DNA of 64,000 bases, from assembly GCA_964355955.1 (NCBI GenBank), contig CAYHFQ010000004.1, positions 1,162 through 65,161 of the forward strand. The letters run 5' to 3'. Under the pieces are notes generated by a model. It saw only the letters and a program-made list of their open reading frames with translations. It ran no database searches and was not told where the DNA came from. The translations under genes were made by a program, and so were the position numbers. Positions within the stretch are counted from its first letter, which is position 1. Every line of letters begins with the position of its first letter. This stretch comes from an uncultured Gammaproteobacteria bacterium (GTDB lineage Bacteria; Patescibacteriota; Patescibacteriia; UBA9934). Below are positions 21,001 to 37,032 of the stretch, piece after piece.

Positions 21001-21562
21001 AAGAGTGATTGTTGATTGGGGTGACAATAAGCAGTCGGGTGCGGTTGATGGGGGTAACTTCTACAAGAACCATCGTGGGTATCAGGACGGTACGACGACG
21101 AGTATCTGTGATACGGATCCGAATGAGAGTACCTACGAGTGGGGCATGAATGGTGATAGTTGCGACCCTAACTACTTCAGCTATAACCATAACTACACTT
21201 GTAACGACTCCCTGATCTTGGGCATGGACGCTTGTGTCGACGCTAACACGGACGGCATTAACGACGTGTCGCCGTGTATGGCGGTGACGGACGAAGGCAG
21301 CTTCTGTGTCTTTACGCCGAAGGTACATGTACGTGATAACTGGGGTTGGTGTACGGGTAGCTGTGTTGATGCAAGCACGGACTCTATAATCAATCATGAG
21401 GCTGATGCATCAAATAACGGAGGAGCTGGTTGCTTTGACAGCGTTGGTACAATATCCGCAACTTCAATTCAGAGTGAATGTAATTATGAAAGCTATCCGC
21501 TTAATGCATCGAATAATGATCCTTGGGTGCATTATCAGGGAGCGGTATATGTGAAGCCATAA
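12086..21562 (+). CDS. Giant (3158 aa) secreted cysteine-rich surface protein with CBM4/9-like modules
   Basis: Signal peptide MKVRGFKRLSIVALLALLVLPTLFLTVKPALA. Recurrent C-x(3-5)-AGC-x-[ED]-[FY] motifs (TCDASAAGCNKL, TCSAADAGCDEF, SCQSADAGCEEV, CAAAANGCRDYTG). NLIPNSSFETDADVNGLPDNW is carbohydrate-binding-module-like. It is a single uninterrupted ORF. Confidence 0.85.
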   Translation: MKVRGFKRLSIVALLALLVLPTLFLTVKPALAIPTESPDLVASDNANAIRLQSQKKAENLAKKSLSGILFSGLINLMQFAADKAAYTMATALVSGGAAGDPLVEFRTPGVLARDYFQSVGGELVGLVSEDLQTTKIGGVAYFANFNLCAPSSPAVLLSLKLGIKSMFEEPLPKCEWNAIKTNWAGFIADNANTFVGEDSILKNDAVLTQLASAFDPQTNEFSASISLFNKVLYQAKGKSDTALINLIVKGPTKDILDVVTGNVKTASQTIDWYRISQNDHIENQKYDFGKMLISNSAAFEQVGLHAASMFANTLVTSGLQALLSGQFKTNANTVDPFNAGLVALMDKETEQARLKSLYTSVPFEVTNYDALSDYANCPNSGNRGLYNCVMDTSFASAVASAAADNALTVQGAVDQGLVNGDWALIPSSDKSRDQDPYCYTYGYCYSNLVKLRKARIIPDGWEMAADSIYNSESSPVTLQTVMDGFDDCNAAGQPDESHNWCKLIDPNWILKYPDTTCKNLAYGELLESSTDATRQQNCVDAPSCISTDADGNCTGGYGYCVRESNVWQFRGDSCPDYASSCLSFTTSEGAKANYLTNTVDYGSCNADNAGCTWYATDKTVQDDGTYAWPTVTSVAEADIATDTYKTRIYYNDNVETCDASAAGCNKLVERGSDVGLNLIPNSSFETDADVNGLPDNWLSTNATAVTYDDSGVALNGDWVIGSNLGGLLYQSGIVLQQGSFYTLSYYARLMDSSDGEETANMLISLNADNGEVIDLRGTSMSTSCNIYVDGSSVTQPEVLQLSGYTTTTDYQRYTCTFTAPILTDRSATVRAYVDVGDGVNVADVWMDEIQLEQSETVTAWHDGYSTASPTFVYANVPPTYLGCTGADTDAAECADYSTVCQEQDVGCTEYTPANGDPAVFGVVSSLDTCPATCDGYDSYKQEATLYEPDGDFPVYFIPSSATTCSAADAGCDEFTKLSDESLGYFTYLRACLTPEQDAGSTYYTWEGSDATGYQLVTWKLLESDLGDSASSTYTASSNVETNVGKAPCTMWETSATGMTCDDNADGDTGEHFDTDTETCDQHDDIFADPDCREFYDTAGDIHYRLWSKTVTVNEACASYRKTDLVGLGLDSNGDLVDDGDANCTNSGGFFDDTLNECTYYGYSDESNTCAAAANGCRDYTGGRSANSRVAFTDTLETGDYTSWDSTSTANVTYSNESVATDGHSLSSLGQTVWTFMGGDGTVCVDEAGCDETAVALGGTCTVGLDGGYCGTLQDELYAGKTYTLSFWAKGTGTLTAGFNVDAVTSGINLNTASGAGRDATFGTATLSASDWQEYSLGPLNMTADDYADFGNGTVLAFIPDSSSSRFYLDNVVLREGEDSIDVIKGSWTTPTECDATPEGTAFPQYYLGCQQYTSQTGETSYEKSFSSLCSEKKVGCSAYYSTAQTDSAYGQVYGLTCSTLDGAIVGAATNCYYGVIDEDSADTVDPVYDTTSAFMCTIGVGFSSCSANMDWSIPADQLLSHLSYGPSAHVVPADAPLYLIVGDTNSCQSADAGCEEVGLPTFSPDHTAVTASTSTYLLNSPADYDTTLCSQDDLFCQAWDAGDKGEYYFKDPGNQSCEYRTGVTVNNTSYDGWFRTGTDNFCYGSGTCVTTDGSVGASCTTDAECGTGVSCNITSGSYLVGGDQSGIWHNGDPSYNNWVGTCDAGDSTCSEFQDLLQIPDGHLYGESDGTSYFFLDNSSLDESGLTTNEQCNGLVSQKAGCVLFNNTAVTAQTYNASASYVASLHADTLFGDKPNDLENPISCTDAVTSTITTPAGDSVDLCASRCAYGSYALHDANNGSTDVSDTSVGGYYAGRSAAQMASVNGLAALGLTATDLYTFGASCLSDSDCPAMTSDLGDEVDGTCGTTVITISESFYSTEVSEIVPRLEDDSNRVLKVDRDRQCSEWLSCADSQQVWDARTGTYRTICGDIDLCNAYSGTGDASFCSSWVQDDVATALDVTRYTSRDTSWYGHEYSGYAIPDLLPVQMLSQVNITPPPGYCNLPMSAGPAVRSEYQGDTCSVDADCSNQATAFPTIYHGSCSQATAADYRLVFDAGSCDESYGASCTVGYCSDTAAACSSNDQCGSNSCVIGTCYTVGSTDCVTDSDCSSGDTCLAEGKCATDNGQLDVGASCDTGETLYADLNDKTGTCINASCLLTAEGQPVDTGLTEAKDCRAYPESSSPFDNEVVSMWVNPDMSEEPNGNDSKQPFADVASKLDIAPDMVPYSFITGFDNANVCVGGVDCSCSYKKITYGTGSTTSYVSADPAVSIINQSLGICSGGGFDGAACAKSDEDTGVISEAMCERGCTSTDCSDGIAVTSDGNDSDGHSTTLNNSGDVKGGGTCNYPTQEDTILGLDGYCLERDTSINVNGNRDDAHRACLTWLPVDQLAGSTDLYGKDLSAGYFAHASVCSNVSIFMDLGPTLVPELNATVGTEGTPGGQMVACAESKITDRTESSSTEFDGTVDDVFSDDTMSNCGHNLVCPAGYWALIGQPSWADGAISINSQVIANACMGVDSAEYNDCPYVCIPLGAVEPTSGMSCDYGGAYTNEVLANTPNGVSVLDTVNDRLPDNVYAIGSQPSGRAETDSLYGYQNFDYVASSLKLCRVRGVEYTDAFAMSVFALPETTDYYRNLVAGQAVTGVDIYTFDENDLNVEYYPACAEVLNVVDSATDIGYPFTDRILNDSQNYMISDDTYSNMQYERTTTPEPFGVITTDLSARDNSDPPIIAASCADLADASDVYRNFDTIVPPLGDSLNSCDSLIDYSDKVAESYPGNALARAWVSFTLSIQKVTHGTFSVKTSMWSVLPSVGAAEEAFTRISKIFAKADIGTDDNLSTWVGEWSSDGGDALGYQTAATTSDDGYDVYDVRGAEGNPPKVWALSNSTCDGTQCEEGDEGALTLNDQNSGDLEGTGGFYRAYLKFYAAADKNQLPIRRVIVDWGDNKQSGAVDGGNFYKNHRGYQDGTTTSICDTDPNESTYEWGMNGDSCDPNYFSYNHNYTCNDSLILGMDACVDANTDGINDVSPCMAVTDEGSFCVFTPKVHVRDNWGWCTGSCVDASTDSIINHEADASNNGGAGCFDSVGTISATSIQSECNYESYPLNASNNDPWVHYQGAVYVKP

Positions 21563-23967: not shown

Positions 23968-24431
23968 AGTCAAAACTTATCCCCCGACTTTGCCGACAGC
24001 CGCCGACACGAGAAGTGTAGTATAAACTCGCAGAAAAGTGGCAGTACGTAAAACCTGTCGGTGGGCGTCGACAAGAAATGGCCAGGATGGGCCATTTTTT
24101 GTTTGAGGGAGAATTTTAGTCGAGCTATAGTTTAAGCACGACGTCGACAGAAGGAGACAGCCTACTATCACAAACGTTTGGTAAAAGTCGTGAACATCTA
24201 AATTAGGTAGATGCGAGCGGCACGGTAGCAAAGCGTTGTCATGGTCGGAATGTCTCGGGCCTAGAGAAGACAACTGGGGAGTAGTTTTTCCCTAGGCCTC
24301 GTCGCTTCTGTAAATTTGGTTAATCGAAGAGGTAACACCGCCCTAAGGCTGTTCCGTGAAAGTCATGGACACTCCTAAAGCCAAAGGGATGTGTTGACCA
24401 ATTCCGGTTGACCATCTCAGTGGAGAGTATC

Positions 24432-26183
24432 ATGCGTTCCTTGTATTTCCTGTTCGGTGTTTCGATCTCGCTCGCGTTGATGGCGGCCATGAGCGGCTGC
24501 TGTGGCCCGTTCTGTATGGTCGAGCGTGACGTCAGCCAGGTTGGCGGCGAAGATGCGGTGACTGTCGACATGCCTTTTGCCATGGGCTACCAGAGCCGGT
24601 GCGTGCAGGGCGTCGATGGCAGCTACTCACATCACTCCAACTCCACCTACTTCGACGTGGACTTTGACACGCCGAATGGGGAGGACGACATCGTCTATGC
24701 TCCGGTGAGCGGGACGGCCTACGTGCACGAGAGTGACCCAACGCGCAACTTTGGCAACCACATCAACCTCGACATGAACGACGGGACCTACCTGGTGCTT
24801 GGGCACATGGAGGACATCTTCGTCAGTGACGGGAGTGAGGTGGCGGCCGGGCAGATCCTCGGTTTCGAGGGCACGACCGGCTACAGCACTGGCGATCACG
24901 TCCACATGGGGCGACACGACGGTGATGCGACGCAGGACGCGGTGCGCGGGACGTCGATTGAGGGGCTGGAGTTCAGCCTGTATGACGCGACGACGCGGCA
25001 AACGCTGACCGAGTCGACGGGCGACATGACTTGCGACTTGTCGAGCGGCCACGTCTACCAGTCCACCCTGCCAGTCAACCGCTGGCACCCGGACGGTAGC
25101 TTGGTCAAAACGCCGAGCGACGCCCAGGTGTACCTGGTGGAGAGCGGGCAATTGCGCTACATCAGCGATGAAACCGCGTTCTGGAGCCGTAACTACAGCT
25201 TCAGCGACGTGGCGCTCATCGACACCGACGAAGAAGCCTGCTACGGCCTGGGCAGCGACATCAGCGGCAGTAGCGAAGTGCAGGCCGTGTACCAGTCGGG
25301 CGTGGTCTGGCTACTGCTCGAGACGCCGAGTACCAGCAATCGGCAACGGTTGCGGGTCAAGAGCACGGGCTGGCAAGCGGTGTTGAAGAGCTGGGGCGTG
25401 GTGGCCAGTACCTACGACGACCTGGCGACCAAGCCGATGGACGGCAATCTGACCGACTGGCCAGACAGCGGATACGCTTTGTTCCGCGACGGTAGCCTCA
25501 TCTCGGAAGTCTCGAGCAGCGCGGTCTACGTCGTGAGCGACGGGATTGCTATGCCAATCGAGAGCTGGGATACGTACCTGCTCATGGGCTTCGGTTCACG
25601 GGCGGTCAGCGAGGTGGACAATGGCACAGTGGCCAGCGTCATGAGCCGTGTCGGGGACTGCAACACCAACACCTACTGCGTCAGCCATGAGGACGCGACG
25701 ACCTGTGGCGGACCCTCCGGCAGCGAAGGGGCGTACGACAGCGGCGGTGAAGGTGGCGCGCCGGATACGGGGCAACTCGACACGGGCTATGTGCCACAAC
25801 AGACGGACACGGGCAGCGAGGCGGCGAACCAGAGCCTGAGCGTGAGCTGGTCAACGCCCAGCTTGGCCACGGCCAGCCGCATTGCCCTCTCTGGCGAGTA
25901 TTCGTCAGGTGGGGCAGCGCAAGGCTGGCAGAACTACGGAGAGGTGAGCAATGCGAGCAACCTGACGCAGGTGTTCGTGAACGCGGCACCAGGCGACAGT
26001 CTGCGCTTCTCCGTGGAATACACCATCGGCGGCAACACCAGCTGGTCGTGTTTGGCGCCATTCCCGCCGGGCACCGTACAAGGCAGCCCGAGTGCAGTGT
26101 GGAACGGGCAAGCACTCCCCGTGGTGGCGACGGACGACCCGAGCAGCGATGGCTGTGGGCTGACGGTGACCGTGCCGAACTAG
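24432..26183 (+). CDS. Secreted peptidase M23 (LytM-like) family protein with long C-terminal Ser/Gly-rich domain (high-GC gene)
   Basis: Signal/TM segment MRSLYFLFGVSISLALMAAMSGC. M23 motifs FGNHINLD and TGYSTGDHVHMG. GGAGAG Shine-Dalgarno 4 nt upstream of the ATG at 24432. About 60% GC. Confidence 0.75.
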   Translation: MRSLYFLFGVSISLALMAAMSGCCGPFCMVERDVSQVGGEDAVTVDMPFAMGYQSRCVQGVDGSYSHHSNSTYFDVDFDTPNGEDDIVYAPVSGTAYVHESDPTRNFGNHINLDMNDGTYLVLGHMEDIFVSDGSEVAAGQILGFEGTTGYSTGDHVHMGRHDGDATQDAVRGTSIEGLEFSLYDATTRQTLTESTGDMTCDLSSGHVYQSTLPVNRWHPDGSLVKTPSDAQVYLVESGQLRYISDETAFWSRNYSFSDVALIDTDEEACYGLGSDISGSSEVQAVYQSGVVWLLLETPSTSNRQRLRVKSTGWQAVLKSWGVVASTYDDLATKPMDGNLTDWPDSGYALFRDGSLISEVSSSAVYVVSDGIAMPIESWDTYLLMGFGSRAVSEVDNGTVASVMSRVGDCNTNTYCVSHEDATTCGGPSGSEGAYDSGGEGGAPDTGQLDTGYVPQQTDTGSEAANQSLSVSWSTPSLATASRIALSGEYSSGGAAQGWQNYGEVSNASNLTQVFVNAAPGDSLRFSVEYTIGGNTSWSCLAPFPPGTVQGSPSAVWNGQALPVVATDDPSSDGCGLTVTVPN

Positions 26184-26304
26184 AATTCGGCAACAAGTTT
26201 CTTCTCGATGACGTTCGTTTCCGCTCCTGGGACGAACGTCATTTTCTTTGCTGTGCAAAACCTACGGCGCAGAGTTGAGGGGTGTGATATACTTCTTACT
26301 AACT

Positions 26305-29142
26305 ATGTCGTATCTAGTTAAGTTGGCGAAGTTTGGTCAGAATTTTTTAAGAAATTACGGGAAAATTATTTTTCCAGTATTGCTGTTGATGGCACTTGGT
26401 ACGCCTCAGTTATTGAAGGCTGAAGATCCAGTGACGACAATTCCACAAGGTGTTACACATACAGAGAGCATTGCGGATCTTCAGGCTTCTATTGATGCCA
26501 CTAATGCTGCTGCTGATGCAGGTTTAGCGGCAGACGCAGGATCTAACGTGCCACCGGCAACTAACGCGCCGTCAGCAGCGAGTTATTTGGCAGATGAGGG
26601 TTTAACACAGACAGCGGTGAATGGCGTTATTCTGTTGCTCGGTACGGTTTTTACGTACCTGGCCCAGGGCGTGGGGTGGATTATCTTGCTATTGATTAAG
26701 ATTATCTTGATCCCCATTCTGCATTACGATGGTTTTGCGACCAGTCGTATTATTGGCTTGGGCTGGAGTTTAGTGCGTGACGTTGTCAACATGTTCGTAG
26801 TGGTGGTGCTTTTAGTGATTGCCGTGATGACCATTGTTGGCAGTCCTAAGGCTAACTGGGAACAGCAAATTCCACGATTGTTTATTTATGTCGTGGCTGT
26901 CAACTTTAGCCGTACTATCTGTGGTTTATTGCTCGACGTCGGCAATGTAGTGATGTTTCAGTTTGTTAATGCTATTTTAGATGTTGGAGCTGGTAACTTT
27001 GCTCAGTTGCTGAAGTTAAATATTACCGGAACATTTACTGATCACTTGAATACTACGATTGGTTCGGCCCAGTTGTTAGCCGGTGCTTATATGCAGCTGG
27101 CGTTATTGCTGGCGGTGCTGGCGGTGATTGGTATCATGGTTCTGGTCTTTTTATACCGTATTGTAGTGTTGTGGGTGTTGATTATTATGTCGCCGGCAGC
27201 CTTTTTTGCTGGTGGAATCAAAGATGTGTTGGGTCAAGCTGGAAGTGCTTATAATGACTGGTGGAAGAAGTTCAGTTCGGCGATTATCCTTGGCCCGTTG
27301 TTGACGTTCTTCTTGTGGCTAGCACTAGCAGCGGCTAGTAGCGGTGACATTATTTCGAGTGAAAATTTCCCAACTGGTGGAGCGAGCGAGAACATTCCAG
27401 GTATTGTGTTGCAGCAGTTTGATATGTCGCAATTGGCTGGCTTGATGCTTGGCTTGGTGTTGCTGGTGGTGGGTATGCAACAAGCGTCGCACGCAGCTGG
27501 AGCGCTTGGCCCGATTGCTGCTGGTTTGGTGAGTGAAGGCATGGGTATGAGGATTGTAAAGGGTGCCATGCGTATGCCGGCGCAGCAGTTTGGACGACAG
27601 GCGAACAAGCGTTTGGCGCCAGCTGGGAGTACTCTTACTTCGGAAATTGGTAAGGGTGTTATTGGGCTCGGTCAGGCAGCGAGAAGTACCGGTATACCTA
27701 TTTTAGGTACGGCTTTTGGGGCGACGATTGGCAAAGGCTTGTCCATTGCTGGTAGCGCAATCCAGAAGACTGGTGATGATCAGTTGCATGAGTCGCAGCA
27801 TAATGCTGAGGAGCGAGTTAAGGCTTGGAGCCCAGAGCGTTTGGCTTCTGAATTGGCGTTGGTGGCCAGTGGTGAGAGAGCTGTGTTGCTTTCTAGTGGT
27901 GGCTCGAAAGAGGCGGCTGTTAAGAAGTTGGTGACGGATAAGGGGACTCAGGATATGGTGGCGGCTCAGTTGTATAAGAAAGACAAGGTAAACGGTGCGC
28001 AACAATTCCAGGATTTGATGAGGACTGCTATTGGTCAGGTTGAGCATCATGAGTCGCATATTATTGGTGACGACGACAAGGCCGGTCAAGCCTTTAACGC
28101 GACTAAGTCACGCTATGTGCACTTGATTGGTGCTATGGCTGATGATAAGGGTGAGATGCATACAGCAGCTGAGCGTATGAAGGCACACATGGATAATCCT
28201 AAGTTTAAGGCCGGTGACATGAGTACAGATGCGGTCAAGAATGAAGTGGTGCAGAATAACGCTCGTAACATTGTGACCGGAACTGACGCGGCTGGTAATA
28301 ATATTACAATGTGGGATGAGATTATATCTGGTAAGGGCGTATCTAATAAAATTCGTGAAGCTGCTTTGGCGACGCCTGTTAGAGCTAGTATTGCACCGGA
28401 CGACAAACAGGCTGCACGTTGGGTTTCTGGCGGAGTACGAATTGGTACTTTGAATAACCGTGATGTTACAGAAGCGGATATTCAAAATAACATTACAGGT
28501 GGAGCGCTTGAGATTAATAGTTTAACGAATGCTGACTTTGCGGCTGCTGGAGGTCCAAATCCAGGACATCGAGGAGAAGAAATTGCCAGGTCTATTGCTT
28601 TGTCTGGAGCCAACTTTACGCTGCCTCACAATCAACTTAATGCTGGTGCTTTGGCTGAATTTGAGAGGAATATTACGCGTGTTATCGGTGACACGACTAA
28701 TAATACAAAGGAAGAGATTGTTAAAGCAATTGCGGCTAAATTCGCTTTGCAAAATGCGGCTGGTGTGCCTAATGACTTGTTCGATCCTGCCAATGGTCGA
28801 GGTGTTGGTGATGATATGGCCGCTTTGGCTGAGGCTATGAAGATTGATCAATCCGCTATTAGGTATGTTGATCCAGCCGCACACGGTGGTGTTAATAAGG
28901 AAGTTATTGAAAAAGCGATTGACAGTGCGGTGTCAGTTAATATGATAAACACCTTGCTAGCCAAGATGAAGAAACTGAAAAAGACAGATGTGGAGTATGT
29001 CAATTACAAAGCGGCTATTGACCGAATTGATGCTGCATTGATTAGTTTAGATACTGCGGGTGGTCCATCAGGATCTAAGCAAACATCTGGCTTCAAAAAC
29101 AAGCGCAACCGAGCTCATGAAGTTAAGATTGAAACGGATTAA
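26305..29142 (+). CDS. Large polytopic membrane protein, VirB6/TrbL-like by topology and context, with ~530-aa soluble C-terminal domain
   Basis: Signal peptide, then about 7-8 TM helices at aa 110-420, then a hydrophilic tail. Position upstream of the VirB3/VirB4-like genes. The track start is TTG 26248. The ATG at 26305 gives the signal peptide. Confidence 0.35.
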   Translation: MSYLVKLAKFGQNFLRNYGKIIFPVLLLMALGTPQLLKAEDPVTTIPQGVTHTESIADLQASIDATNAAADAGLAADAGSNVPPATNAPSAASYLADEGLTQTAVNGVILLLGTVFTYLAQGVGWIILLLIKIILIPILHYDGFATSRIIGLGWSLVRDVVNMFVVVVLLVIAVMTIVGSPKANWEQQIPRLFIYVVAVNFSRTICGLLLDVGNVVMFQFVNAILDVGAGNFAQLLKLNITGTFTDHLNTTIGSAQLLAGAYMQLALLLAVLAVIGIMVLVFLYRIVVLWVLIIMSPAAFFAGGIKDVLGQAGSAYNDWWKKFSSAIILGPLLTFFLWLALAAASSGDIISSENFPTGGASENIPGIVLQQFDMSQLAGLMLGLVLLVVGMQQASHAAGALGPIAAGLVSEGMGMRIVKGAMRMPAQQFGRQANKRLAPAGSTLTSEIGKGVIGLGQAARSTGIPILGTAFGATIGKGLSIAGSAIQKTGDDQLHESQHNAEERVKAWSPERLASELALVASGERAVLLSSGGSKEAAVKKLVTDKGTQDMVAAQLYKKDKVNGAQQFQDLMRTAIGQVEHHESHIIGDDDKAGQAFNATKSRYVHLIGAMADDKGEMHTAAERMKAHMDNPKFKAGDMSTDAVKNEVVQNNARNIVTGTDAAGNNITMWDEIISGKGVSNKIREAALATPVRASIAPDDKQAARWVSGGVRIGTLNNRDVTEADIQNNITGGALEINSLTNADFAAAGGPNPGHRGEEIARSIALSGANFTLPHNQLNAGALAEFERNITRVIGDTTNNTKEEIVKAIAAKFALQNAAGVPNDLFDPANGRGVGDDMAALAEAMKIDQSAIRYVDPAAHGGVNKEVIEKAIDSAVSVNMINTLLAKMKKLKKTDVEYVNYKAAIDRIDAALISLDTAGGPSGSKQTSGFKNKRNRAHEVKIETD

Positions 29143-29213
29143 TATTGCTTATGGAGGGGGGTGACATTCGCGGTATTCCAATAGTTAGCCAGTTTTTAAC
29201 GAATGGGGAGTCC

Positions 29214-31073
29214 ATGGAAAAACTGGAGACGATGCAAGAAAAGTATAAACTGCCTGTTGATCGGGCGGACGAGTATTTAATGTTATGTCGGGCGGTGTTG
29301 GACGGGGATATACAACTTGACCACATGCCAGAGATGATTGCCGAGGCGTTTGGGGTGGATGAGGAGATGGCTAAGAAGATTGCTATGGATGTGGTGGCGA
29401 TTAGGTTGTTGCCGCTTGAGGGTTACTGGCCGGGAGTTGAGGCGCAGATTGTGAAGTGGGGTGGAAAAGTGAGTGATTATTCGGCATTTCGTGTAGGTAA
29501 GGAGAAGATTACGGCGGATAGGTTTGCTGGTAATTTAACGGAGAACTTAGAATTGACGTTGTCGCCCGTGCATATTAAGCGTTTGGGATTTTTGGTGAAG
29601 AGTTATTTTGCTGGCGAGAAGACGAGGGATGCGACAATGACGTTTTTTGCCCGACCGGTGAATATCGGAGGCTTGGGGTTGGCGCTTGAACAAGCTAAGG
29701 GTTTGATGGAGAGTATTGATGAGTCTAAAGAGATGGTGGAGTTGGTGGATGATGAGAGGGATGAGACTTTTAGGGAGGAATCTGAAGAGCCGGTAGAACC
29801 AGTTAATGAGGTTACTGAGAGTGATAATATTTTAAAGGAGGCTCGGCCGGTAGAAGAGATGAAAATTGAGACACTAATAGGCGGGGATACCATGCCCCGC
29901 CAGGAGGAGCCTGTAGTCGAGCCAATTATTGAAGATGTAAAGCGGGGGACGGTGACCCCGCCTATTACGAAGATAAAAGAAGAGGTCGTTGCAGAGAAGA
30001 TACCCGAAGAAATTCCAGTGATAGCGAATTTGCCGGAGGTGGCGCCGAGTATGGTAGTTTCGACCACGACGCCGGTGACGCCGAGGGTGATGGTGGCTGG
30101 GGGAGAGCTTGCGTCCGACAGCGAAGAGATTGCGGCGCAGGCTAAAGTGATTGCCAAGAAAGATATTGCGAGTGAGGGTAATGACGAGAAGTTAAAGGCG
30201 GCGGTGGATTTGGTGCTGACGTCAGCGTCGACCTTATTGCAGGCTAAGAGATTGGCGAAGAAAGAGTTTGCGCCAGTTTGCGAGATGATGATTAGAGGCG
30301 TACGAGATGTCATGCAGACGCGGGGAGTGCTAGTGAAAGAGTTTGGATTGGACGAGGCGTCGATTGATGCTTTGCTGGGATTCGTCGATGATGGGGCGAA
30401 ATTCTATCATCAGGCTGAGATTAAGCGGGGGACGGTGACCCCCCCTATTGAAGTGAAAGCTGCGGTGCCAACAGTAGGTGAAGTGATGGACCGGAGGTTC
30501 GCGGAGGTGACGAAAACGTTGCCTAAGGCACCGATTGTGCCGGTGATGGATGAAGCTAGGGTGAGTGCAGCCAGAAGCAAAGAAGATGAGGTAGCGGAAC
30601 AAGCGGCGAAGATTGATGTGGCTAAGCTCGAAGTGGCGGCAGAAGCGGCCAAGCCGGTGTTAGCGAAAGCGATGCTGACGGTGGGCAGTGTGGCGCCAAG
30701 CTTGCCAGGTGAGCCTGTGATGATGAACGACGTGAAGTTTAAGCCGCGATTGGTTGGCCCGGTGGATGAGCTCGGTACTATGATGCCGGCTGACTTTAGG
30801 CGTTTGTCGAGCGATCCAGTAGAGGCGACCAAGAAGATTGAAGATTTGTTGGCGGCGCTGCAGACAACGTCGTTTGAAGAAAGGATTAGAGGTATTCAGG
30901 CTTGGCGCGTGAGCCCAGTTTGTAGATTATATGCGGCCATGGCTGGCGAAGCGTTGCAGGCTGGCGTGGCGTTGGCGGAAGTAGCGAGTAAGAGACGTAA
31001 TAAGGGCGAGGAGAGTTTGAGCCCGGCGGAGATGAAGGCGATAGGATCGTTGAACGCAAAGATGAGATTCTAG
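29214..31073 (+). CDS. Acidic hypothetical protein with internal repeat (KRGTVTPPI twice)
   Basis: GGGGAG Shine-Dalgarno 4 nt before the ATG at 29214. Glu-rich with no TM helix. The repeat lines are VKRGTVTPPITKIKEEV and IKRGTVTPPIEVKAAV. Confidence 0.55.
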   Translation: MEKLETMQEKYKLPVDRADEYLMLCRAVLDGDIQLDHMPEMIAEAFGVDEEMAKKIAMDVVAIRLLPLEGYWPGVEAQIVKWGGKVSDYSAFRVGKEKITADRFAGNLTENLELTLSPVHIKRLGFLVKSYFAGEKTRDATMTFFARPVNIGGLGLALEQAKGLMESIDESKEMVELVDDERDETFREESEEPVEPVNEVTESDNILKEARPVEEMKIETLIGGDTMPRQEEPVVEPIIEDVKRGTVTPPITKIKEEVVAEKIPEEIPVIANLPEVAPSMVVSTTTPVTPRVMVAGGELASDSEEIAAQAKVIAKKDIASEGNDEKLKAAVDLVLTSASTLLQAKRLAKKEFAPVCEMMIRGVRDVMQTRGVLVKEFGLDEASIDALLGFVDDGAKFYHQAEIKRGTVTPPIEVKAAVPTVGEVMDRRFAEVTKTLPKAPIVPVMDEARVSAARSKEDEVAEQAAKIDVAKLEVAAEAAKPVLAKAMLTVGSVAPSLPGEPVMMNDVKFKPRLVGPVDELGTMMPADFRRLSSDPVEATKKIEDLLAALQTTSFEERIRGIQAWRVSPVCRLYAAMAGEALQAGVALAEVASKRRNKGEESLSPAEMKAIGSLNAKMRF

Positions 31074-31114
31074 AAGGTAGAGGGTAGAGAGTAGAACGTA
31101 GATTGTGCTATAAT
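31071..31114 (+). promoter_or_regulatory. Five tandem heptamers TAGA-N-N-G followed by extended -10 (TGCTATAAT)
   Basis: TAGAAGG TAGAGGG TAGAGAG TAGAACG TAGATTG then TGCTATAAT. The ATG at 31121 lies 7 nt after the -10 box, so the message is predicted leaderless. Confidence 0.55.
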
Positions 31115-31120
31115 GAAAGC

Positions 31121-31561
31121 ATGGCTGGTCGCAATCAATTTGTCGTGCCGCAGTTCCTCGACGTCGAGGCGAAAATTATCGGGCCAATTACGGCGCGGCA
31201 GTTTGTTATTTTTTTAGTGGTGCTGTTGTTTGAGTTCTTATTATATCGAATATTTTTAAGTTTAGCTGTCATTCTAATAGTTGGTTTGCCAGTGTTGGGC
31301 CTAGGTATACTTTTTGCTTTTTTTAAGGTTAATGGTCAACCTTTCCATTATATTCTGCTGAACGTAATTCAGACCATGCGGAAACCACGCTTAAGAGTTT
31401 GGGATAAGACGTTGTCTGATGCTGACATTAGGGTCTTTATGTTGCCGCCAGTAGTCGCTCCACCGCCACCGCCAGTAGCCAAGTCACCGATCGAAAGAGG
31501 AAGGTTGTCGGAATTGACGCTCGTGGTTAATACAGGCGGAAGTTACAATCCGGAGGACTAA
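31121..31561 (+). CDS. Small two-TM membrane protein, VirB3/PrgI-like
   Basis: N-terminal VVPQFLDVEAKIIGPITARQFVIFLVVLLFEF followed by a hydrophobic hairpin. Located immediately upstream of the VirB4-family gene, which is the canonical order. Confidence 0.45.
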   Translation: MAGRNQFVVPQFLDVEAKIIGPITARQFVIFLVVLLFEFLLYRIFLSLAVILIVGLPVLGLGILFAFFKVNGQPFHYILLNVIQTMRKPRLRVWDKTLSDADIRVFMLPPVVAPPPPPVAKSPIERGRLSELTLVVNTGGSYNPED

Positions 31562-31570
31562 AATAACTAT

Positions 31571-32257
31571 ATGGCAACCAATAAATTAGCTAAGCCAAAG
31601 GCGGGGCCACCAACACAGAGATATTTGGATATTGCCGAGATTCGTGAAGATGTGGTGGTGATGAAAGACGGAACACTGCGAACGGTGCTGATGACGAGCA
31701 GCCTAAATTTTGCTTTGAAGAGTGAAGACGAACAACAGGCCGTGATTCAGGGGTATATGCAGTTTTTAAATAGTTTGGAGCACCCGATTCAGATCGTTAT
31801 TCAATCGAGAAGGATGAACGTGGATGGGTATTTGGAACGTTTAAAGCAACAAGAAGATACGATTGGCAATGAGTTACTGAAGTCACAAATTCGAGACTAC
31901 ACGTCGTTTATTAGCGAGTTGGTGGAGTTAGGTGAGATCATGCAAAAGAGATTTTTTGTCATTATTCCGTTTGACCCACTGCAAGATAAGAAGCAAAGTT
32001 TTGTGACTAAATTGCAGACTGCCTTGGCACCAGCTTCGGTAGTGAAGTTGAATGAAAAGGTGTTTCGTACTAGGCGGGATAGTCTGATGCAGCGCACGAG
32101 CAATGTGGCTGGCGGCTTGGGCAGTATGGGCTTGCAAAGCGCTATGCTCGATACGCAGGGTCTGATTGAGTTGTATTATTCGGTGTATAATCCAGATATT
32201 GCAGAAACGCAGAAAATGACCGATATCAATAAGTTAAGAATCGAGACAAAATTCTAG
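31571..32257 (+). CDS. VirB4-family protein, N-terminal segment (separated from ATPase segment by a single in-frame TAG)
   Basis: DVVVMKDGTLRTVLMTSSLNFALKSEDEQQAVIQGYMQFLNSLEHPIQIVIQS. It is in the same reading frame as the 32261 ORF, with only TAG at 32255-32257 between them. Confidence 0.5.
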   Translation: MATNKLAKPKAGPPTQRYLDIAEIREDVVVMKDGTLRTVLMTSSLNFALKSEDEQQAVIQGYMQFLNSLEHPIQIVIQSRRMNVDGYLERLKQQEDTIGNELLKSQIRDYTSFISELVELGEIMQKRFFVIIPFDPLQDKKQSFVTKLQTALAPASVVKLNEKVFRTRRDSLMQRTSNVAGGLGSMGLQSAMLDTQGLIELYYSVYNPDIAETQKMTDINKLRIETKF

Positions 32258-32260
32258 TTT

Positions 32261-34174
32261 ATGGCTTTTGATGTCGAAAAACTGCAGCAGAGTAAGGTGA
32301 CTGTAGCTGCGCCTAAAGTTCAGCGCGTTTTGTCGCCGCAGGAATTAGCAGCGGCGCAGGAAAGAGTAACGCTTGAAGAAGAGCGAACTTACAGGCGCGG
32401 TGTGGTGTCGATCAGAGATTTGATTGCGCCAGCGGCGTACCAGATTTTTCCTAACTATTTGTTGTTGGGCGATACTTACGTCCGAACGTTGTTTGTGACG
32501 ATGTACCCTCGTTATGTGGGTATTGGTTGGGGGACGCCGATTATCAACTACAACAGTACCATTGATATCGGCATGTTCTTCTATCCAGTAAAACCGGAGA
32601 TTATTTTGAAGCAACTCAAGAATAAAGTAGGTGTACTTTCTGCGCAGATTATTTCTGATAATGAGAAAGGCGCGGCTCGTGACCCGATTCGTGAAACGGC
32701 GTTACGTGATATTGAACAATTGCGCGATGACTTGACGCAAGGCATCGAGCATTTCTTTCAATTTGCTTTTTATGTCACTGTTTACGCCAAGAATAAAGAG
32801 GAACTGGATAAACGATCGGAACAAATTGAAAGTATTTTTGGAACAAAATTAATTTCTAGTAAACGCGGTTTCTATCAGGCGGAGCAGGGCTTTAATTCCA
32901 CCATGCCACTTGGCAATGATGAGTTGATGATTAGCTTTAACATGAATACGTCGCCAATTGCGTCGTCATTCCCATTCACGTCAAGCGATTTGAGTAGCGA
33001 TAATGGTATTTTGTACGGCATTAATAGGCACAATAACTCGCTTATTTTGTTTGACCGTTTTAGCTTGCAGAATGCGAATGCCTTGGTGTTTGCGACTTCT
33101 GGTGCGGGTAAATCTTACACGGTCAAACTGGAAATTTTACGTTCGCTCATGATGGGAACGGACGTGATTGTTATTGACCCGGAAATGGAATACCGACACC
33201 TGAGCGATGCGGTTGGTGGGACGTATGTGAACGTTTCTTTGGCGTCCGATGCGAAGATTAACCCGTTTGATTTGCCACGCAGCAAGGGGGATGAAACGAG
33301 TTCGGAAGATGTTTTGCGAAGTGCGGTGATTACAATTAAGGGCTTGCTCCGGATCATGATTGGGACGCCGCGCGGTGAGAAGAGTCAGCTTGGTTTTACG
33401 CCGGAAGAAGATTCGTTGCTCGACCGGGCGTTGCTTGAAACGTATGCTAAGAAAGATATTACAGCTGATCTGCCTAACTTTATTGGGGTTGAATATCCGG
33501 TGCTGCAAGATTTGCAGGATGTGTTGCAAGGCATGCAAGGAGCAACGGATTTGGTGGCGCGTTTGCAAAAGTATACCGAGGGGACGTTTGCTGGCTTGTT
33601 GAATAGTTTGACGACGGTGGAGATGCGTAACCAGTTGGTTATTTTCTCAGTACGAGATTTGGAGGACGAGTTGCGCCCAATGGCGATTTATACCATCGTT
33701 AACTACATTTGGAATGTGGTGCGCAGTGAACGTAAGAAGCGTATTCTCGTGATCGACGAGGCTTGGTGGCTCATGCAGAATGAAGACTCGGCCAAGTTTA
33801 TTTTTGCGCTAGTCAAGCGAGCGCGTAAGTACTTCCTGGGCGTGACAACGATTACGCAGGATGTGAACGACTTTTTAACCAGTGTTTACGGCCAGGCGAT
33901 TGTGACCAACTCTTCCATGCAGATGTTGCTGAAACAGTCACCAGCGGCGATTGACTTGATTCAGAAGACGTTTAACCTGACAGATAGCGAGAAGTACTTG
34001 TTGCTTGAGAGCGCAGTGGGTGAAGGAATTTTCTTTGCTGGGCAGAAACATGCGGCCATTAAGGTGGTGGCGAGTTATACTGAGGACCAGTTAATTACGA
34101 CGAACCCACAGCAGTTATTGGAGCAAGAGCAAGCTAAAAAACAGTTTGAGAAATCATTAGGCGGCGGCAGTTAG
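32261..34174 (+). CDS. VirB4/TrbE/CagE-family type IV secretion ATPase (C-terminal ATPase segment)
   Basis: Walker A LVFATSGAGKSYTVK and Walker B RILVIDEAWWLM (the DEAW motif typical of VirB4/TraC). Conserved C-terminal TQ...ESAVGEGIFFAG. Confidence 0.7.
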   Translation: MAFDVEKLQQSKVTVAAPKVQRVLSPQELAAAQERVTLEEERTYRRGVVSIRDLIAPAAYQIFPNYLLLGDTYVRTLFVTMYPRYVGIGWGTPIINYNSTIDIGMFFYPVKPEIILKQLKNKVGVLSAQIISDNEKGAARDPIRETALRDIEQLRDDLTQGIEHFFQFAFYVTVYAKNKEELDKRSEQIESIFGTKLISSKRGFYQAEQGFNSTMPLGNDELMISFNMNTSPIASSFPFTSSDLSSDNGILYGINRHNNSLILFDRFSLQNANALVFATSGAGKSYTVKLEILRSLMMGTDVIVIDPEMEYRHLSDAVGGTYVNVSLASDAKINPFDLPRSKGDETSSEDVLRSAVITIKGLLRIMIGTPRGEKSQLGFTPEEDSLLDRALLETYAKKDITADLPNFIGVEYPVLQDLQDVLQGMQGATDLVARLQKYTEGTFAGLLNSLTTVEMRNQLVIFSVRDLEDELRPMAIYTIVNYIWNVVRSERKKRILVIDEAWWLMQNEDSAKFIFALVKRARKYFLGVTTITQDVNDFLTSVYGQAIVTNSSMQMLLKQSPAAIDLIQKTFNLTDSEKYLLLESAVGEGIFFAGQKHAAIKVVASYTEDQLITTNPQQLLEQEQAKKQFEKSLGGGS

Positions 34175-34309: not shown

Positions 34310-34867
34310 ATGTATAATATGCAACGTAAAACTGAAATCATCATTGCTATCATCATCATTGTCGCTTTAGCGATTCTGCTGTTTTTCTGGTTCAACCGAA
34401 CGGTTAAGCAGGCTGCTACGCCAACTAAGGTGACACCTGAGGTGACGACGTCGATTAAGACGACGCCAACTCCGAGTGCAACTGGTATAGCAGTGGCAGC
34501 TCCATCATCGGCTAGTACGGTGGCTCGAGTTTTTGTCGAAAGATTTGGAAGCTATTCGACCGAGTCGGGTTATACGAATATTGATGACGTGATGTCACTG
34601 ACGACAAAAGATTTGCAGGGTCGCTTGCAGAGTTTATTAGAGGCGGCGCAAAAGGAGGCACAGAGTGATTATTACGGTGTCTCGACGCGCTTGATGGGGA
34701 GTAAGACAGAAGTGACGGCTGAAACGTCCATGACGTATAAGATGTCGACGCAACGGCAAGAGTCGTTTGATTCGCCAGCTAATACTTCGGTGAGGTACCA
34801 GGATATTCGAGTTGTGCTGACAAAATCTGGTGATAGTTGGCTCGTAAGCGACTTCACCTGGCTGTAG
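34310..34867 (+). CDS. Bitopic membrane protein (N-terminal TM, ~120-aa extracytoplasmic domain), function unknown
   Basis: IIIAIIIIVALAILLFFWF TM helix then a Thr/Pro linker. Bracketed on both sides by family-2 repeats. Confidence 0.5.
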   Translation: MYNMQRKTEIIIAIIIIVALAILLFFWFNRTVKQAATPTKVTPEVTTSIKTTPTPSATGIAVAAPSSASTVARVFVERFGSYSTESGYTNIDDVMSLTTKDLQGRLQSLLEAAQKEAQSDYYGVSTRLMGSKTEVTAETSMTYKMSTQRQESFDSPANTSVRYQDIRVVLTKSGDSWLVSDFTWL

Positions 34868-35005: not shown

Positions 35006-35680
35006 ATGTCTGGTTTGGCTGAGCGAGTGCTCGAGGCGGTGTTCCCGAGGTTTTGTGTGAGCTGCCAGCGGGAAGGCGGCTTGTTATGTTTGGCGTGTGA
35101 CGAAGGGTGGAATCCAGAGAGGCCGAGAGTGCTCGAGAGCAAAGATGAGGGAGTTGACTGCGATATTAGCAAGCTGTGGGCGGTGTTGCCGTATGCTAAT
35201 CCGGTGGCGAGGGAGCTGATAACGTCGTGGAAGTACAATTACGATACTTCGGCATGGGCAATATTGCGTCGACGATTGGCGCCACAGATAGCTACATTGA
35301 CGCTGACGTTGGCCATGCATAAGATTGAGGCGATTGTGCCGTTGCCGCTGATGAATCAACGAAGATGCGAAAGGGGGTTCGATCAGTCGGTGGAGATTGC
35401 TGAGTGGCTGAGTAAGTTGACCAACTTGCCGGTGGCTCATTTGTTGGTACGAAAGCATACGGCGGGACACCAAGCAGATAGAACGGTAGACGAAAGATTA
35501 AAAGCGATGATGGCGTCGCCTTTTTCGTTGAGCACCGAGCTTTGTAATGCTATACCTCGAAGGGTTCTGTTGGTGGATGACGTATGGACGACGGGGGCGA
35601 CGATGAGTGCTGGGGCGAGGACGTTGAAGAGTGGGGGAGTAGAGGAGGTTTTTGGGTTTGCATTGGCGAGAGGAAAGTAG
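35006..35680 (+). CDS. comF: ComF family phosphoribosyltransferase-domain competence protein (ComFC-like)
   Basis: N-terminal Cys4 (CVSCQ...CLAC) and a C-terminal PRTase motif VLLVDDVWTTGATM. Confidence 0.7.
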   Translation: MSGLAERVLEAVFPRFCVSCQREGGLLCLACDEGWNPERPRVLESKDEGVDCDISKLWAVLPYANPVARELITSWKYNYDTSAWAILRRRLAPQIATLTLTLAMHKIEAIVPLPLMNQRRCERGFDQSVEIAEWLSKLTNLPVAHLLVRKHTAGHQADRTVDERLKAMMASPFSLSTELCNAIPRRVLLVDDVWTTGATMSAGARTLKSGGVEEVFGFALARGK

Positions 35681-35770: not shown

Positions 35771-35858
35771 TGGCGGAGGAGGTGAGATTCGAACTCACGG
35801 TGCCTTGCAGCACGGCGCATTTCAAGTGCGCTGGAATAAACCACTATCCGACTCCTCC
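35771..35858 (-). tRNA. tRNA-Ser (anticodon TGA)
   Basis: The reverse complement folds as a cloverleaf with anticodon loop CTTGAAA, a long variable arm (GTGC-TGCAA-GGCAC), T-loop GTTCGAATC, and CCA encoded. Confidence 0.8.
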
Positions 35859-35924
35859 GAACTCATTTACCCGACTGATGGGTCGACAAAATACTATCTG
35901 AAAAAGAGGTTTTCGTAAAGTACT

Positions 35925-36066
35925 GCTGACTCGATACGACTCGCCGGCGCCTCTCACCTCGTCGACACTCGGTTCGGGCTGGGCACCGCCTCGCCATGCT
36001 CGCTGGTGCTCGCATAAGGCTCCGGCGTTCTCGTCGTGACGCAAGCCAAGCAGTTGGCTTGCTCCG
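35925..36066. repeat. Degenerate composite of family-1 loop motif (TCTCACCTCGTCGACACTCGG) plus an 8-bp hairpin related to family 2 (GCAAGCCA-AGCAGT-TGGCTTGC)
   Basis: GC-rich spacer between two tRNA genes that shares sub-motifs with both repeat families. Confidence 0.4.
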
Positions 36067-36073
36067 GGCGCAA

Positions 36074-36103
36074 CAAAAAAACCCAGCCAAAGCTGGGATT
36101 TTT
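36074..36103. terminator. Terminator downstream of tRNA-Arg (bidirectional hairpin)
   Basis: AAAAAAACCCAGC-CAAA-GCTGGGATTTTTT. Confidence 0.65.
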
Positions 36104-36180
36104 TGGTGCGCCCGGCACGACTCGAACGTACGACCCTCAGCTCCGCAAGCTGATGCTCTATCCAACTGAGCTACGGGCGC
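36104..36180 (-). tRNA. tRNA-Arg (anticodon read as GCG)
   Basis: The reverse complement GCGCCCGTAGCTCAGTTGGATAGAGCATCAGCTTGCGGAGCTGAGGGTCGTACGTTCGAGTCGTGCCGGGCGCACCA folds as a cloverleaf. Anticodon loop TTGCGGA and CCA encoded. Confidence 0.7.
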
Positions 36181-36245
36181 TCGAATAAATAGCAAAGCTA
36201 TTTATGTAAGCATGGATTGAATTCGTTCAAAAAAGTACGAATTGC

Positions 36246-36782
36246 TCAGAGTTTATACAGTCTGGAGAGCATATCTGTCAAGTATTCACGCTCTCTATTG
36301 AGGTTTTCGAAGGCATACGGTAAAAGTGCCTTGCGGACGTCGTTGGGATTCATGTCTTCCAGTGGAACAGTCAAAGTTGGGGCTAAAGAACCATGAAAAG
36401 CCACATAAAGGGTTTTTACATCAGGTGGGTTGTAAATAATTGAAAAATCTCGCACATCCTGATAAGGATAGAAATTATGGCCGAAAACCACGCCACCAGT
36501 AGTTAAGTGAATTTCAACCCTATCTGGCTTACGGATATCACGCATGAGCGTAATAACCGCAAACATGATAATAATCACGGCAAACACGAAGTTCGCTGCG
36601 ATTATTGCATAGAGGAGTAAAGCTAGACCAAGGGTACTAGCAATAATGTACCAACGGCGCGATCGCACCACTGGCGGGTATTCCCAAGTCTCCCAACTAA
36701 GAATGGACGCTCCAGCGTCAATTTTCTCTTTATTCTCTTCCATATTTTGCTTAACTTCAGGCATGTTCATAGTATACCACAC
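36246..36782 (-). CDS. Hypothetical membrane protein (two central TM helices)
   Basis: 178-aa ORF with the hydrophobic core YIIASTLGLALLLYAIIAANFVFAVIIIMFAVI. Confidence 0.45.
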   Translation of the reverse strand: MWYTMNMPEVKQNMEENKEKIDAGASILSWETWEYPPVVRSRRWYIIASTLGLALLLYAIIAANFVFAVIIIMFAVITLMRDIRKPDRVEIHLTTGGVVFGHNFYPYQDVRDFSIIYNPPDVKTLYVAFHGSLAPTLTVPLEDMNPNDVRKALLPYAFENLNREREYLTDMLSRLYKL

Positions 36783-36942
36783 TGGCCCTTGAAAACATCC
36801 GGTTTATAAGCTACCCTAATGAGGCTTTACGAGCCCCCGCCAAGCGCAGCGCAGGCGAGACGAGCGGACCAACGTGCCGCGAGTGAGCGTGAGGTAGTTT
36901 GTTACGCGAACGCGAACGGCAGGCCGTTGCGTCCGCGAGTAC

Positions 36943-37032
36943 GGAGAGGTGGCCGAGTGGCTGAAGGCACAGGTTTGCTAAACCTGCGTACTTGAAAGAG
37001 TACCGGAGGTTCGAATCCTCTCCTCTCCGCCA
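36943..37032 (+). tRNA. tRNA-Ser (anticodon GCT)
   Basis: GGAGAGGTGGCCGAGTGG... with anticodon loop TTGCTAA, a long variable arm, T-loop GTTCGAATC, and CCA encoded. Confidence 0.85.

Follow-up and report, generated by a model that had tools for sequence, protein, structure and literature searches.

An in-frame TAG between a TrsD-like gene and a VirB4 ATPase gene is an ordinary gene boundary in a type IV secretion locus of Patescibacteria

The sections on TrsD in Quinonero-Coronel et al. (2025, Microb Genom; PMC12102498) describe this protein as a remote homologue of the N-terminal part of VirB4. In the same sections, TrsD is the most abundant component of type IV secretion systems (T4SS) in Patescibacteria, is encoded mostly adjacent to virB4, and forms with VirB4 a pair taken as a hallmark of their T4SS. 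A TrsD homologue is also reported there to be essential in Ca. S. epibionticum ML1, a strain in which the T4SS itself is reported to be essential (PMC10633639). That organism is the only member that is genetically tractable, and its epibiotic way of life is reported to depend on the T4SS. The main text of Guglielmini et al. (2014; PMC4027160), the source cited for the relation of TrsD to VirB4, does not mention TrsD, and the homology between TrsD and VirB4 is therefore attributed here only to PMC12102498.

A comparable pair of genes, here called A and B, lies within the 64,000-nucleotide stretch of DNA that was analyzed (the window), together with the following features.

24408 to 26183, + strand: Peptidase_M23-domain protein, 591 aa (PF01551, 55.5 bits; NCBIfam peptidoglycan hydrolase matches)
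26248 to 29142, + strand: candidate VirB6-like channel subunit, a 964-aa polytopic membrane protein (position and topology)
29145 to 31073, + strand: 642-aa protein within the cluster (no Pfam or NCBIfam match, no hydrophobic segment)
31103 to 31561, + strand: membrane protein of the PrgI family (VirB3-like), 152 aa if counted from the listed TTG (PF12666, 41.8 bits, above the cutoff of 27)
31571 to 32257, + strand: ORF A, 228 aa, ATG start, TAG stop
32255 to 32257, + strand: TAG stop of gene A, a genuine terminator
32258 to 32260, + strand: intergenic spacer TTT, 3 nt
32261 to 34174, + strand: ORF B, 637 aa, ATG start
33092 to 33115, + strand: Walker A motif ATSGAGKS, B residues 278 to 285, inside the AAA_10/DUF87 match
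33743 to 33769, + strand: Walker B region ILVIDEAWW, B residues 495 to 503, kept in fused relatives
34310 to 34867, + strand: 185-aa protein downstream of VirB4, with one N-terminal hydrophobic segment at residues 4 to 33

Genes A and B start in the same frame (31571 mod 3 = 32261 mod 3 = 2), and their products sum to 865 aa (228 + 637), or to 866 if the TTT codon is counted. An initial annotation had viewed the pair as one VirB4-family ATPase divided by the TAG and had offered three explanations: a nonsense mutation, a two-subunit arrangement restarting at the adjacent ATG, and stop codon readthrough. Its coordinates for both ORFs, the TAG, the TTT and the shared frame were all exact when rechecked. 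The block typical of VirB4 N-terminal domains that it had pointed out in A is also present, as SSLNFALKSEDEQ at residues 43 to 55 and PIQIVIQS at residues 72 to 79. Among its three explanations, only the two-subunit arrangement was borne out by the comparison with relatives (80 of 80 loci). We consider it very likely that the window holds an intact two-gene operon unit of a chromosomal T4SS of Patescibacteria (Uhrbacteria-like), in which a PrgI/VirB3-like protein is followed by a TrsD-like protein (A) and a VirB4 ATPase (B). The split between A and B is real, ordinary and already known.

In searches of NCBIfam, A matched VirB4_plasma (positions 111 to 233 of 894), TrsD/TraD (24 to 168 of 201) and the CD1110 VirB4 family, NF045971, with A residues 16 to 97 mapping to positions 2 to 88 of 752. 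The TrsD/TraD model, NF041427, gave 27.2 bits (E 2.9e-6) against a curated cutoff of 200; at that distance from the cutoff, A is a remote relative that lies outside this narrow subfamily. When A was compared with an annotated TrsD of Peribacillus, hhalign returned a probability of 93.8% (E 1.7e-7). Because A is detectably homologous both to TrsD and to the N-terminal part of VirB4, it is TrsD-like in the broad sense, and it also has the size and position of TrsD-like proteins, as a stand-alone protein of 228 aa (the usual range being ~200 to 250 aa) encoded 3 nt before B. Homologues of A numbered 5303, of which the best 120 were all 222 to 244 aa long. A Pfam search with the local library returned no family for A; the precomputed annotations of the A homologues carry PF26593.2 on all of them, and this family is evidently newer than that library. 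No transmembrane or hydrophobic segment was found in the 228-aa sequence, and a comparison of the A profile with PDB sequences yielded no meaningful match. The predicted structure of A alone had a moderate pLDDT of 60, falling below 50 at residues 206 to 228. With this model, the top Foldseek matches were all TrwK/VirB4, the R388 TrwK/VirB4 chains first, but these matches were weak (E 2e-3, TM ~0.37 to 0.40), and because the model is only moderate they are taken as supportive only. These comparisons identify A as a TrsD-like, predicted soluble protein that is the opening part of VirB4's N-terminal region, detached in the course of evolution.

Gene B carries the remainder of VirB4. Its product scored 353.4 bits (E 2.4e-105) against NF045971, above the curated cutoff of 325, with residues 21 to 596 mapping to positions 158 to 730 of 752, so that the VirB4 kinship originally proposed for both pieces holds. 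Its Pfam matches were P-loop_TraG (103 bits), AAA_10, DUF87 and the C-terminal part of TraC_F_IV, and residues 240 to 613 matched the VirB4 C-terminal domain of PDB 4AG5 (E 1.2e-44). B accordingly comprises the latter half of VirB4's N-terminal region (approximately residues 1 to 239) and, after it, the C-terminal ATPase domain (240 to 613). All of the best 120 B homologues were 629 to 687 aa long. A single-chain VirB4 has a complete N-terminal region and the ATPase on one polypeptide; B lacks NF045971 positions 1 to 157, and the missing part is supplied by A. By alignment, it is the A and B pair, not B alone, that is the predicted equivalent of canonical VirB4.

The junction between the two genes was compared across 80 loci, comprising 79 species-representative genomes and the window, with orthologues down to 56% identity. 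The A orthologue ended in a real stop codon in all 80 Patescibacteria loci (TAA in 40, TAG in 28 and TGA in 12), and the B orthologue restarted at a conserved ATG (MAF/MAI). The spacer was 1 to 12 nt long in 71 loci and 19 to 484 nt long in the other 9, and the genes never overlapped. The comparison of fused and split orthologues that the initial annotation had called for therefore shows consistently two separate genes, the outcome that it had named as refuting a VirB4 ATPase split by an in-frame TAG. dN/dS was 0.012 to 0.024 for A and 0.014 to 0.034 for B, with synonymous sites near saturation, which indicates purifying selection on both genes.

These data bear directly on the first of the early explanations, in which a single virB4 of ~865 aa was recently broken by the TAG and is now a decaying pseudogene. 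This would account for two ORFs that share a frame and are separated only by TAG and TTT, and fused versions of 797 to 898 aa do exist in distant relatives. However, a recent mutation is contradicted by the split at the same place in 80 of 80 orthologous loci and by the split lengths of all of the best 120 homologues of each half. Both halves also have dN/dS values of 0.01 to 0.03, and B retains both Walker motifs (A and B) as well as its conserved ATG/MAF start. Fusion, moreover, was found in just 2 of the 150 best representatives. A pseudogene is excluded because the same-place splits use three different stop codons, the homologues have split lengths and dN/dS is this low; we regard a nonsense mutation as extremely improbable.

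Programmed readthrough or reassignment of TAG would instead yield a single VirB4 of ~866 aa, either as the principal product or as a minor but functional isoform. In the window, as in 28 of 80 relatives, the two ORFs share a frame and the spacer contains no second stop, and the natural covalent fusions show that fusion is compatible with function. The relative frames 0, 1 and 2 were nevertheless found in 28, 22 and 30 loci, so that in-frame junctions were not enriched over the one-third expected by chance (28/78, p=0.36; 17/46 and p=0.35 once loci were collapsed at 80% identity). Orthologues that are 92% and 85% identical have a 2-nt spacer that places B out of frame with A, and all three stop codons are used at the site. 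TAG is also a routine stop: of 48 long ORFs in the window, 17 end in it, among them groEL and gene B, and the 3 tRNA genes detected there include none with a CUA anticodon. Because approximately two-thirds of the orthologues are out of frame and TAG is a routine stop, designed readthrough, the second early explanation to fall, is excluded, and we judge this reading very unlikely. Since approximately one-third of orthologous junctions are in frame, the shared frame of A and B is no more than chance; in the window, it is a coincidence of the 3-nt spacer.

Point errors are possible in metagenome-assembled genomes, and the TAG might accordingly be a sequencing or assembly artefact in a gene that is truly continuous. 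The 228-aa A product recurs without any change on 4 contigs, which are listed under NCBI, ENA and Logan, and the unchanged B product on 3. An independent, 96%-identical genome (L001) has an identical TAG-TTT-ATG junction, and the split is universal in the family. These findings contradict the assembly error that had been listed as an alternative, and its probability is negligible.

The rare fused relatives show where the two genes meet. Among the 150 best representatives at 50% identity, 148 were no longer than 443 aa and 2 were fused (P0265, 797 aa, and P0262, 898 aa), each with an A-like part at the N terminus followed by a B-like part. P0265 residues 17 to 750 align in one stretch to TIGR00929 positions 18 to 725, P0262 residues 3 to 882 align in one stretch to VirB4_plasma positions 92 to 893, and the N termini of both match the TrsD model too. 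In P0265, the A tail and B residues 1 to 46 are replaced by approximately 12 aa, while P0262 carries a Pro/Ala-rich linker of approximately 100 aa at residues 224 to 322. The boundary between A and B falls in a variable linker, in line with the pLDDT below 50 at the end of the A model. Because such natural fusions exist, a fused full-length VirB4 could function. In the lineages with an in-frame junction (approximately one-third), occasional natural readthrough of the TAG might supply a little fused VirB4 that seeds or stabilizes assembly of the two-piece ATPase, an idea that we hold to be highly improbable.

Under the two-gene reading that we prefer, translation of A ends at the TAG, and B has its own initiation at the ATG that follows after 3 nt. 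The spacing of 1 to 12 nt suggests that B may be translated from the same ribosome traffic by termination-reinitiation coupling, which would give roughly matched amounts of A and B. Such coupling cannot be obligatory, given the spacers of 19 to 484 nt in 9 of 80 loci. In the window, a strong GGAGGA precedes A and none precedes B. Family-wide, Shine-Dalgarno strength before the A or B starts was the same as at random positions, and the GGAGGA contrast is for that reason not used as evidence for coupling. The two products probably associate noncovalently and rebuild a complete VirB4; this would then bind to the PrgI/VirB3 membrane protein and drive the secretion channel. A joint AlphaFold2 model of A and B was uninformative on their interface (pLDDT 41.6, pTM 0.25).

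Alternatively, A could resemble the VirB4 N terminus through ancient descent alone and now act as an independent accessory, such as an adaptor or regulator bound to PrgI/VirB3, that does not complete the VirB4 fold. On an Embleya plasmid, PrgI rather than the ATPase is the fusion partner of a TrsD-like module, and the ATPase gene is set apart from this fusion by an unrelated gene; long spacers also occur in 9 of 80 loci. The sections of PMC12102498 that deal with TrsD add that Gracilibacteria encode their TrsD homologues away from virB4 and that experiments have assigned no function to any TrsD. Against an accessory role, A is tightly adjacent to B in 71 of 80 loci, A-like modules fused to the ATPase are found repeatedly, in Rubrobacter as well as in Patescibacteria relatives, and the module aligns collinearly with the N terminus of canonical VirB4. 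An accessory role is thus unlikely, and a two-piece VirB4 remains the preferred reading. Taken together, the junction statistics, the rare fusions and the PrgI-TrsD fusion suggest, as a Rosetta-stone argument, that TrsD works together with VirB4 and PrgI/VirB3.

The genes around the pair were also examined. The PrgI-family protein is encoded directly upstream of A and has a hydrophobic segment at residues 23 to 78; a PrgI gene is associated with virB4, as in Patescibacteria and MPF-FATA-type T4SS. The 964-aa protein has seven hydrophobic segments in its N-terminal 411 residues and no Pfam or NCBIfam match, and its position and topology make it a candidate VirB6-like subunit. The M23 protein is a candidate T4SS cell wall hydrolase that may take the role of VirB1. 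M23 hydrolases accompany T4SS loci of Patescibacteria and Bacillota. For the 185-aa protein, the only NCBIfam match was a subthreshold one to IcmG/DotF (26 bits against a cutoff of 200). No relaxase or coupling protein was found among the window ORFs covered by a nonexhaustive scan. KsgA and YidC are encoded near the T4SS locus. Separately, a +1 frameshift in prfB was suspected, as the RF2 model match begins at ORF residue 65; it was rejected, since no CTTTGAC site lies nearby, and the offset of the match is explained by an in-frame ATG at 6900.

As a discovery, the pair carries little weight, since TrsD and VirB4 have already been described together and are near-universal in Patescibacteria T4SS. 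The locus does offer a lesson for annotation: an in-frame stop codon between two halves of a familiar protein can suggest pseudogenization or recoding, neither of which applies here, and pipelines and readers should not flag or "repair" it. The Rosetta-stone argument could also guide experiments on the poorly understood TrsD subunit.

The closest described system is the Patescibacteria T4SS pair. As far as the account of that pair in PMC12102498 goes, the window has the same lineage type (Uhrbacteria/Patescibacteria relatives), the same PrgI/VirB3-TrsD-VirB4 order and the same chromosomal KsgA/YidC context; it shows no substantive difference from that account and is a further instance of it. 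What is added to the account is the stop codon and frame statistics, the rare fused relatives and the placement of the boundary in a variable linker. The TrsD/TraD and TrsE/TraE proteins of Bacillota (pGO1/pSK41 type, the pGO1 subclass of MPF-FATA) likewise comprise a stand-alone protein of ~200 to 230 aa encoded immediately before a VirB4-type ATPase of ~620 to 670 aa. The same split pair occurs on Pontibacillus and Peribacillus plasmids, the latter with a trsD product of 219 aa and a DUF87 ATPase of 657 aa, like A and B. These Bacillota systems reside on conjugative plasmids, whereas the system in the window is chromosomal and its A protein scores below the NF041427 cutoff.

Full-length Gram-positive VirB4 proteins (NF045971, CD1110; NF045975, Mbov_0397; TIGR00929, VirB4_CagE) are single chains with which A and B are collinear, and the fused Patescibacteria-type relatives match full-length VirB4 end to end. 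The window differs in that the first ~90 to 160 model positions are on a separate polypeptide. At 865 aa, A and B together are longer than the 752-position CD1110 model, owing to the variable tail of A and head of B where the two genes meet. The VirB3-VirB4 fusions of some conjugative systems, as mentioned in PMC12102498, are the reverse rearrangement, while the window keeps the three modules separate. The PrgI and TrsD-like fusion of Embleya is of the same kind, and such fusions illustrate how the modules on the cytoplasmic face of the T4SS (VirB3, VirB4 N terminus and ATPase) have been repeatedly fused and split in evolution.

The initial annotation had described a VirB4-family ATPase gene split by an in-frame TAG, and its coordinates matched the sequence exactly:

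31571-32257, + strand: ORF A (TrsD-like), 228 aa, ATG start, closed by TAG (32255-32257)
32258-32260, + strand: spacer between ORF A and ORF B, TTT
32261-34174, + strand: ORF B (VirB4-type ATPase), 637 aa, ATG start

The two starts share a frame, as had been claimed, and the motif block noted in ORF A was found at residues 43-55 (SSLNFALKSEDEQ) and 72-79 (PIQIVIQS). Matches to NCBIfam VirB4 models bore out the proposed kinship of both ORFs with VirB4.

ORF B encodes a VirB4-type type IV secretion ATPase. It contained the Pfam domains P-loop_TraG, AAA_10, DUF87, and the C-terminal part of TraC_F_IV, and it scored 353 bits against the NCBIfam CD1110 VirB4 family (cutoff, 325; model positions 158-730 of 752). 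Residues 240-613 matched the C-terminal domain of a VirB4 solved by crystallography (4AG5; E = 1.2e-44), and both the Walker A (ATSGAGKS, residues 278-285) and Walker B (ILVIDEAWW, residues 495-503) motifs were intact.

ORF A had no match in the Pfam copy searched. In NCBIfam, it matched two full-length VirB4 models in their N-terminal regions (CD1110, positions 2-88; Mbov_0397 family, positions 111-233), and a third match, to the TrsD/TraD family of stand-alone proteins (positions 24-168 of 201; 27 bits), was far under the 200-bit cutoff. The pair is thus collinear with canonical single-chain VirB4, and the gene boundary lies within the VirB4 N-terminal region, not at the ATPase domain border. 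With hhalign, the ORF A family was similar to an annotated Peribacillus TrsD (probability, 93.8%; E = 1.7e-7). The AlphaFold model of ORF A alone was of moderate quality (pLDDT 60), with values below 50 at residues 206-228, and its top PDB fold matches were R388 TrwK/VirB4 chains (E = 2.3e-3; TM, ~0.37 to 0.40), a weak fold match that is nevertheless consistent with a VirB4 origin.

When 1.84 billion representatives were searched exhaustively with the ORF A profile, 3,099 relatives were returned; among the best 150, 148 were 443 aa or shorter and 2 were long. In one long protein, P0265 (797 aa), an A-like part (residues 5-214) is followed after ~12 residues by a B-like part that begins at the equivalent of ORF B residue 47. 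In the other, P0262 (898 aa), an A-like part (residues 3-223) and a B-like part flank a Pro/Ala-rich low-complexity linker of ~100 aa (residues 224-322). P0265 residues 17-750 aligned in one stretch to TIGR00929 (18-725 of 792), as did P0262 residues 3-882 to VirB4_plasma (92-893 of 894), and both N termini also matched the TrsD model. By a Rosetta stone argument, these fused proteins demonstrate that ORF A is a detached N-terminal module of VirB4. They also show that the ORF A/ORF B boundary sits in a variable linker, and the end of ORF A was modeled at low confidence. P0262 has the appearance of two genes fused across what was once an intergenic junction.

A recent nonsense mutation had been one proposed explanation of the split. 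ORF A had 5,303 homologues, of which the best 120 (68 to 96% identical) were all 222 to 244 aa; the best 120 homologues of ORF B (76 to 100% identical) were all 629 to 687 aa. Junctions were sampled at 80 loci from species-representative genomes of Uhrbacteria, Falkowbacteria, Buchananbacteria, and other Patescibacteria (56 to 96% identity); one fetched locus ran off its contig, leaving 79 loci plus the window. In all 80 junctions a true stop closed the ORF A orthologue (TAA, 40; TAG, 28; TGA, 12), so that the genes were separate throughout, and a conserved ATG, encoding MAF, MAI, or MS[FI], restarted the ATPase. The spacer was 1 to 12 nt in 71/80 junctions, and overlap occurred in none. Very strong purifying selection acts on both ORFs (dN/dS, 0.012 to 0.024 for ORF A and 0.014 to 0.034 for ORF B); synonymous sites were already close to saturation in the comparison with the 96%-identical orthologue. 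The universal split, uniform homologue lengths, and purifying selection led us to reject the split as a lesion.

Stop-codon readthrough had also been suggested. Relative frames 0, 1, and 2 occurred in 28, 22, and 30 junctions, so that all three frames as well as all three stop codons were used among orthologues. In-frame junctions were not enriched over the one-third expectation (28/78, P = 0.36), nor when collapsed at 80% identity (17/46, P = 0.35), and the nearest relatives of differing geometry (92% and 85% identical) had a 2-nt, out-of-frame spacer. Within the window, TAG closed 17/48 long ORFs, including groEL and ORF B; TGA was the rarest stop (4/48), and none of the three tRNA genes found had a CUA anticodon. 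As for assembly error, 4 contigs listed under NCBI, ENA, and Logan (longest, 1,085,513 bp) had a called product identical to the 228-aa ORF A protein and 3 contigs had the exact ORF B product, and an independent genome (L001, 96% identity) had an identical TAG-TTT-ATG junction. Because the TAG recurs independently and is a routine stop, and because the split is conserved, pseudogene, assembly error, and programmed readthrough were all rejected. The common frame is a coincidence of the 3-nt spacer. These data show that ORF A and ORF B are two conserved genes, separately terminated and initiated, with a restart at the adjacent ATG.

Six loci (L007, L034, L036, L044, L067, and L069) had trsD-virB4 spacings of 75 to 484 nt instead of 1 to 12 nt. 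In L007, a mini-ORF (ATGGCGTTCGTTTGA) lies directly 3' of the stop and a second MAF start follows 145 nt on, which may stem from local duplication or from misassembly.

The 1- to 12-nt spacing suggests that translation of ORF B could be coupled to that of ORF A. Shine-Dalgarno signals, uninformative family-wide, did not support coupling independently, and 9/80 spacers were longer. In the window the order is PrgI-TrsD-like-VirB4, with the PrgI gene (31103-31561) directly upstream of ORF A. By analogy with what the VirB4 N-terminal domain does in the top fold matches, the R388 structures, the ORF A product and the N-terminal part of the ORF B product would assemble non-covalently to rebuild a complete VirB4, which may dock on membrane-located PrgI/VirB3. 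A joint model of the two products was of low confidence (pLDDT 41.6).

The locus resembles a chromosomal Patescibacteria type IV secretion system (T4SS), with YidC, GroEL, RF2, and KsgA genes upstream:

24408-26183: Peptidase_M23 protein, first in cluster order
next: 964-aa polytopic membrane protein, 7 hydrophobic segments, no HMM match, possibly VirB6-like
next: 642-aa protein, preceding PrgI
next: PrgI, TrsD-like protein, and VirB4
after VirB4: small membrane-anchored protein
35006-35680, + strand: ComF-family protein (TIGR00201, 87 bits, under cutoff), just 3' of the cluster
within 35771-37032: tRNA-Ser (tga), tRNA-Arg (gcg), and tRNA-Ser (gct), 3' of the ComF-family gene
46522-48021, - strand: 499-aa protein with T4SS_pilin (PF18895, VirB2-like) at residues 146-212

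The pilin gene lies ~12 kb downstream of virB4 on the opposite strand, adjoined by same-strand ORFs at 48028-50681. The neighboring ComF-family gene is suggestive of a competence link, with the T4SS perhaps repurposed for uptake.

About 3 kb upstream of the cluster is a 3,158-aa ORF (12086-21562, + strand); before it, at 11375-12082, lies the gene for a 235-aa protein that contains bacterial TSP3 repeats. The sole Pfam signal of the 3,158-aa ORF was a weak CBM_4_9 carbohydrate-binding match, and this ORF may encode a giant surface or adhesin protein; such proteins are common in epibiotic Patescibacteria. The RF2 gene, prfB (465 bits to TIGR00020), contained no programmed +1 frameshift site. 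Its listed GTG start at 6729 over-extends into the 236-nt groEL-prfB intergenic region (6664-6899), and the start is likely ATG 6900 (gene, 6900-8018, + strand).

The TrsD-like module shifts between architectures. On a Pontibacillus plasmid it stands alone ahead of a 621-aa ATPase of the CD1110 family (11-nt overlap), and on a Peribacillus plasmid it is annotated as trsD (219 aa) and precedes a DUF87 ATPase of 657 aa; in Rubrobacter it is embedded in a 1,344-aa ATPase. On Embleya sp. plasmid NZ_CP108778.1 (L084), the product of 3129-4178 (349 aa, annotation "PrgI family protein") joins a PrgI domain (residues 14-101) to a TrsD-like region (~125-249); the second gene downstream, separated from it by an XF1762-family gene, encodes a VirB4-type ATPase. 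Here the PrgI, TrsD-like, and VirB4 modules are wired in an alternative way, and the fusion ties the TrsD-like module functionally to PrgI/VirB3. Junction and fusion statistics together support a TrsD-VirB4-PrgI functional unit.

The ORF A/ORF B junction is thus a real, correctly located, and ordinary two-gene arrangement that has already been described, and junctions such as TAG-TTT-ATG call for caution before a pseudogene or recoding site is assigned. According to Quinonero-Coronel et al. (2025, PMC12102498), no T4SS component was recovered more abundantly in Patescibacteria than TrsD (2,272 homologues, 1,664 of them VirB4 associated); within Bacillota, it is known from the pGO1 subclass alone, and the list of essential genes in Ca. 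S. epibionticum ML1 includes it. For epibiotic growth of that strain, the T4SS is reported to be essential (Wang et al. 2023, PMC10633639). PMC12102498 and PMC12857230 report VirB2-like pilins as an unusual feature of Patescibacteria T4SSs. PMC12102498 also places KsgA and origin-proximal genes near virB4 in Patescibacteria, and KsgA likewise lies near virB4 in the window.
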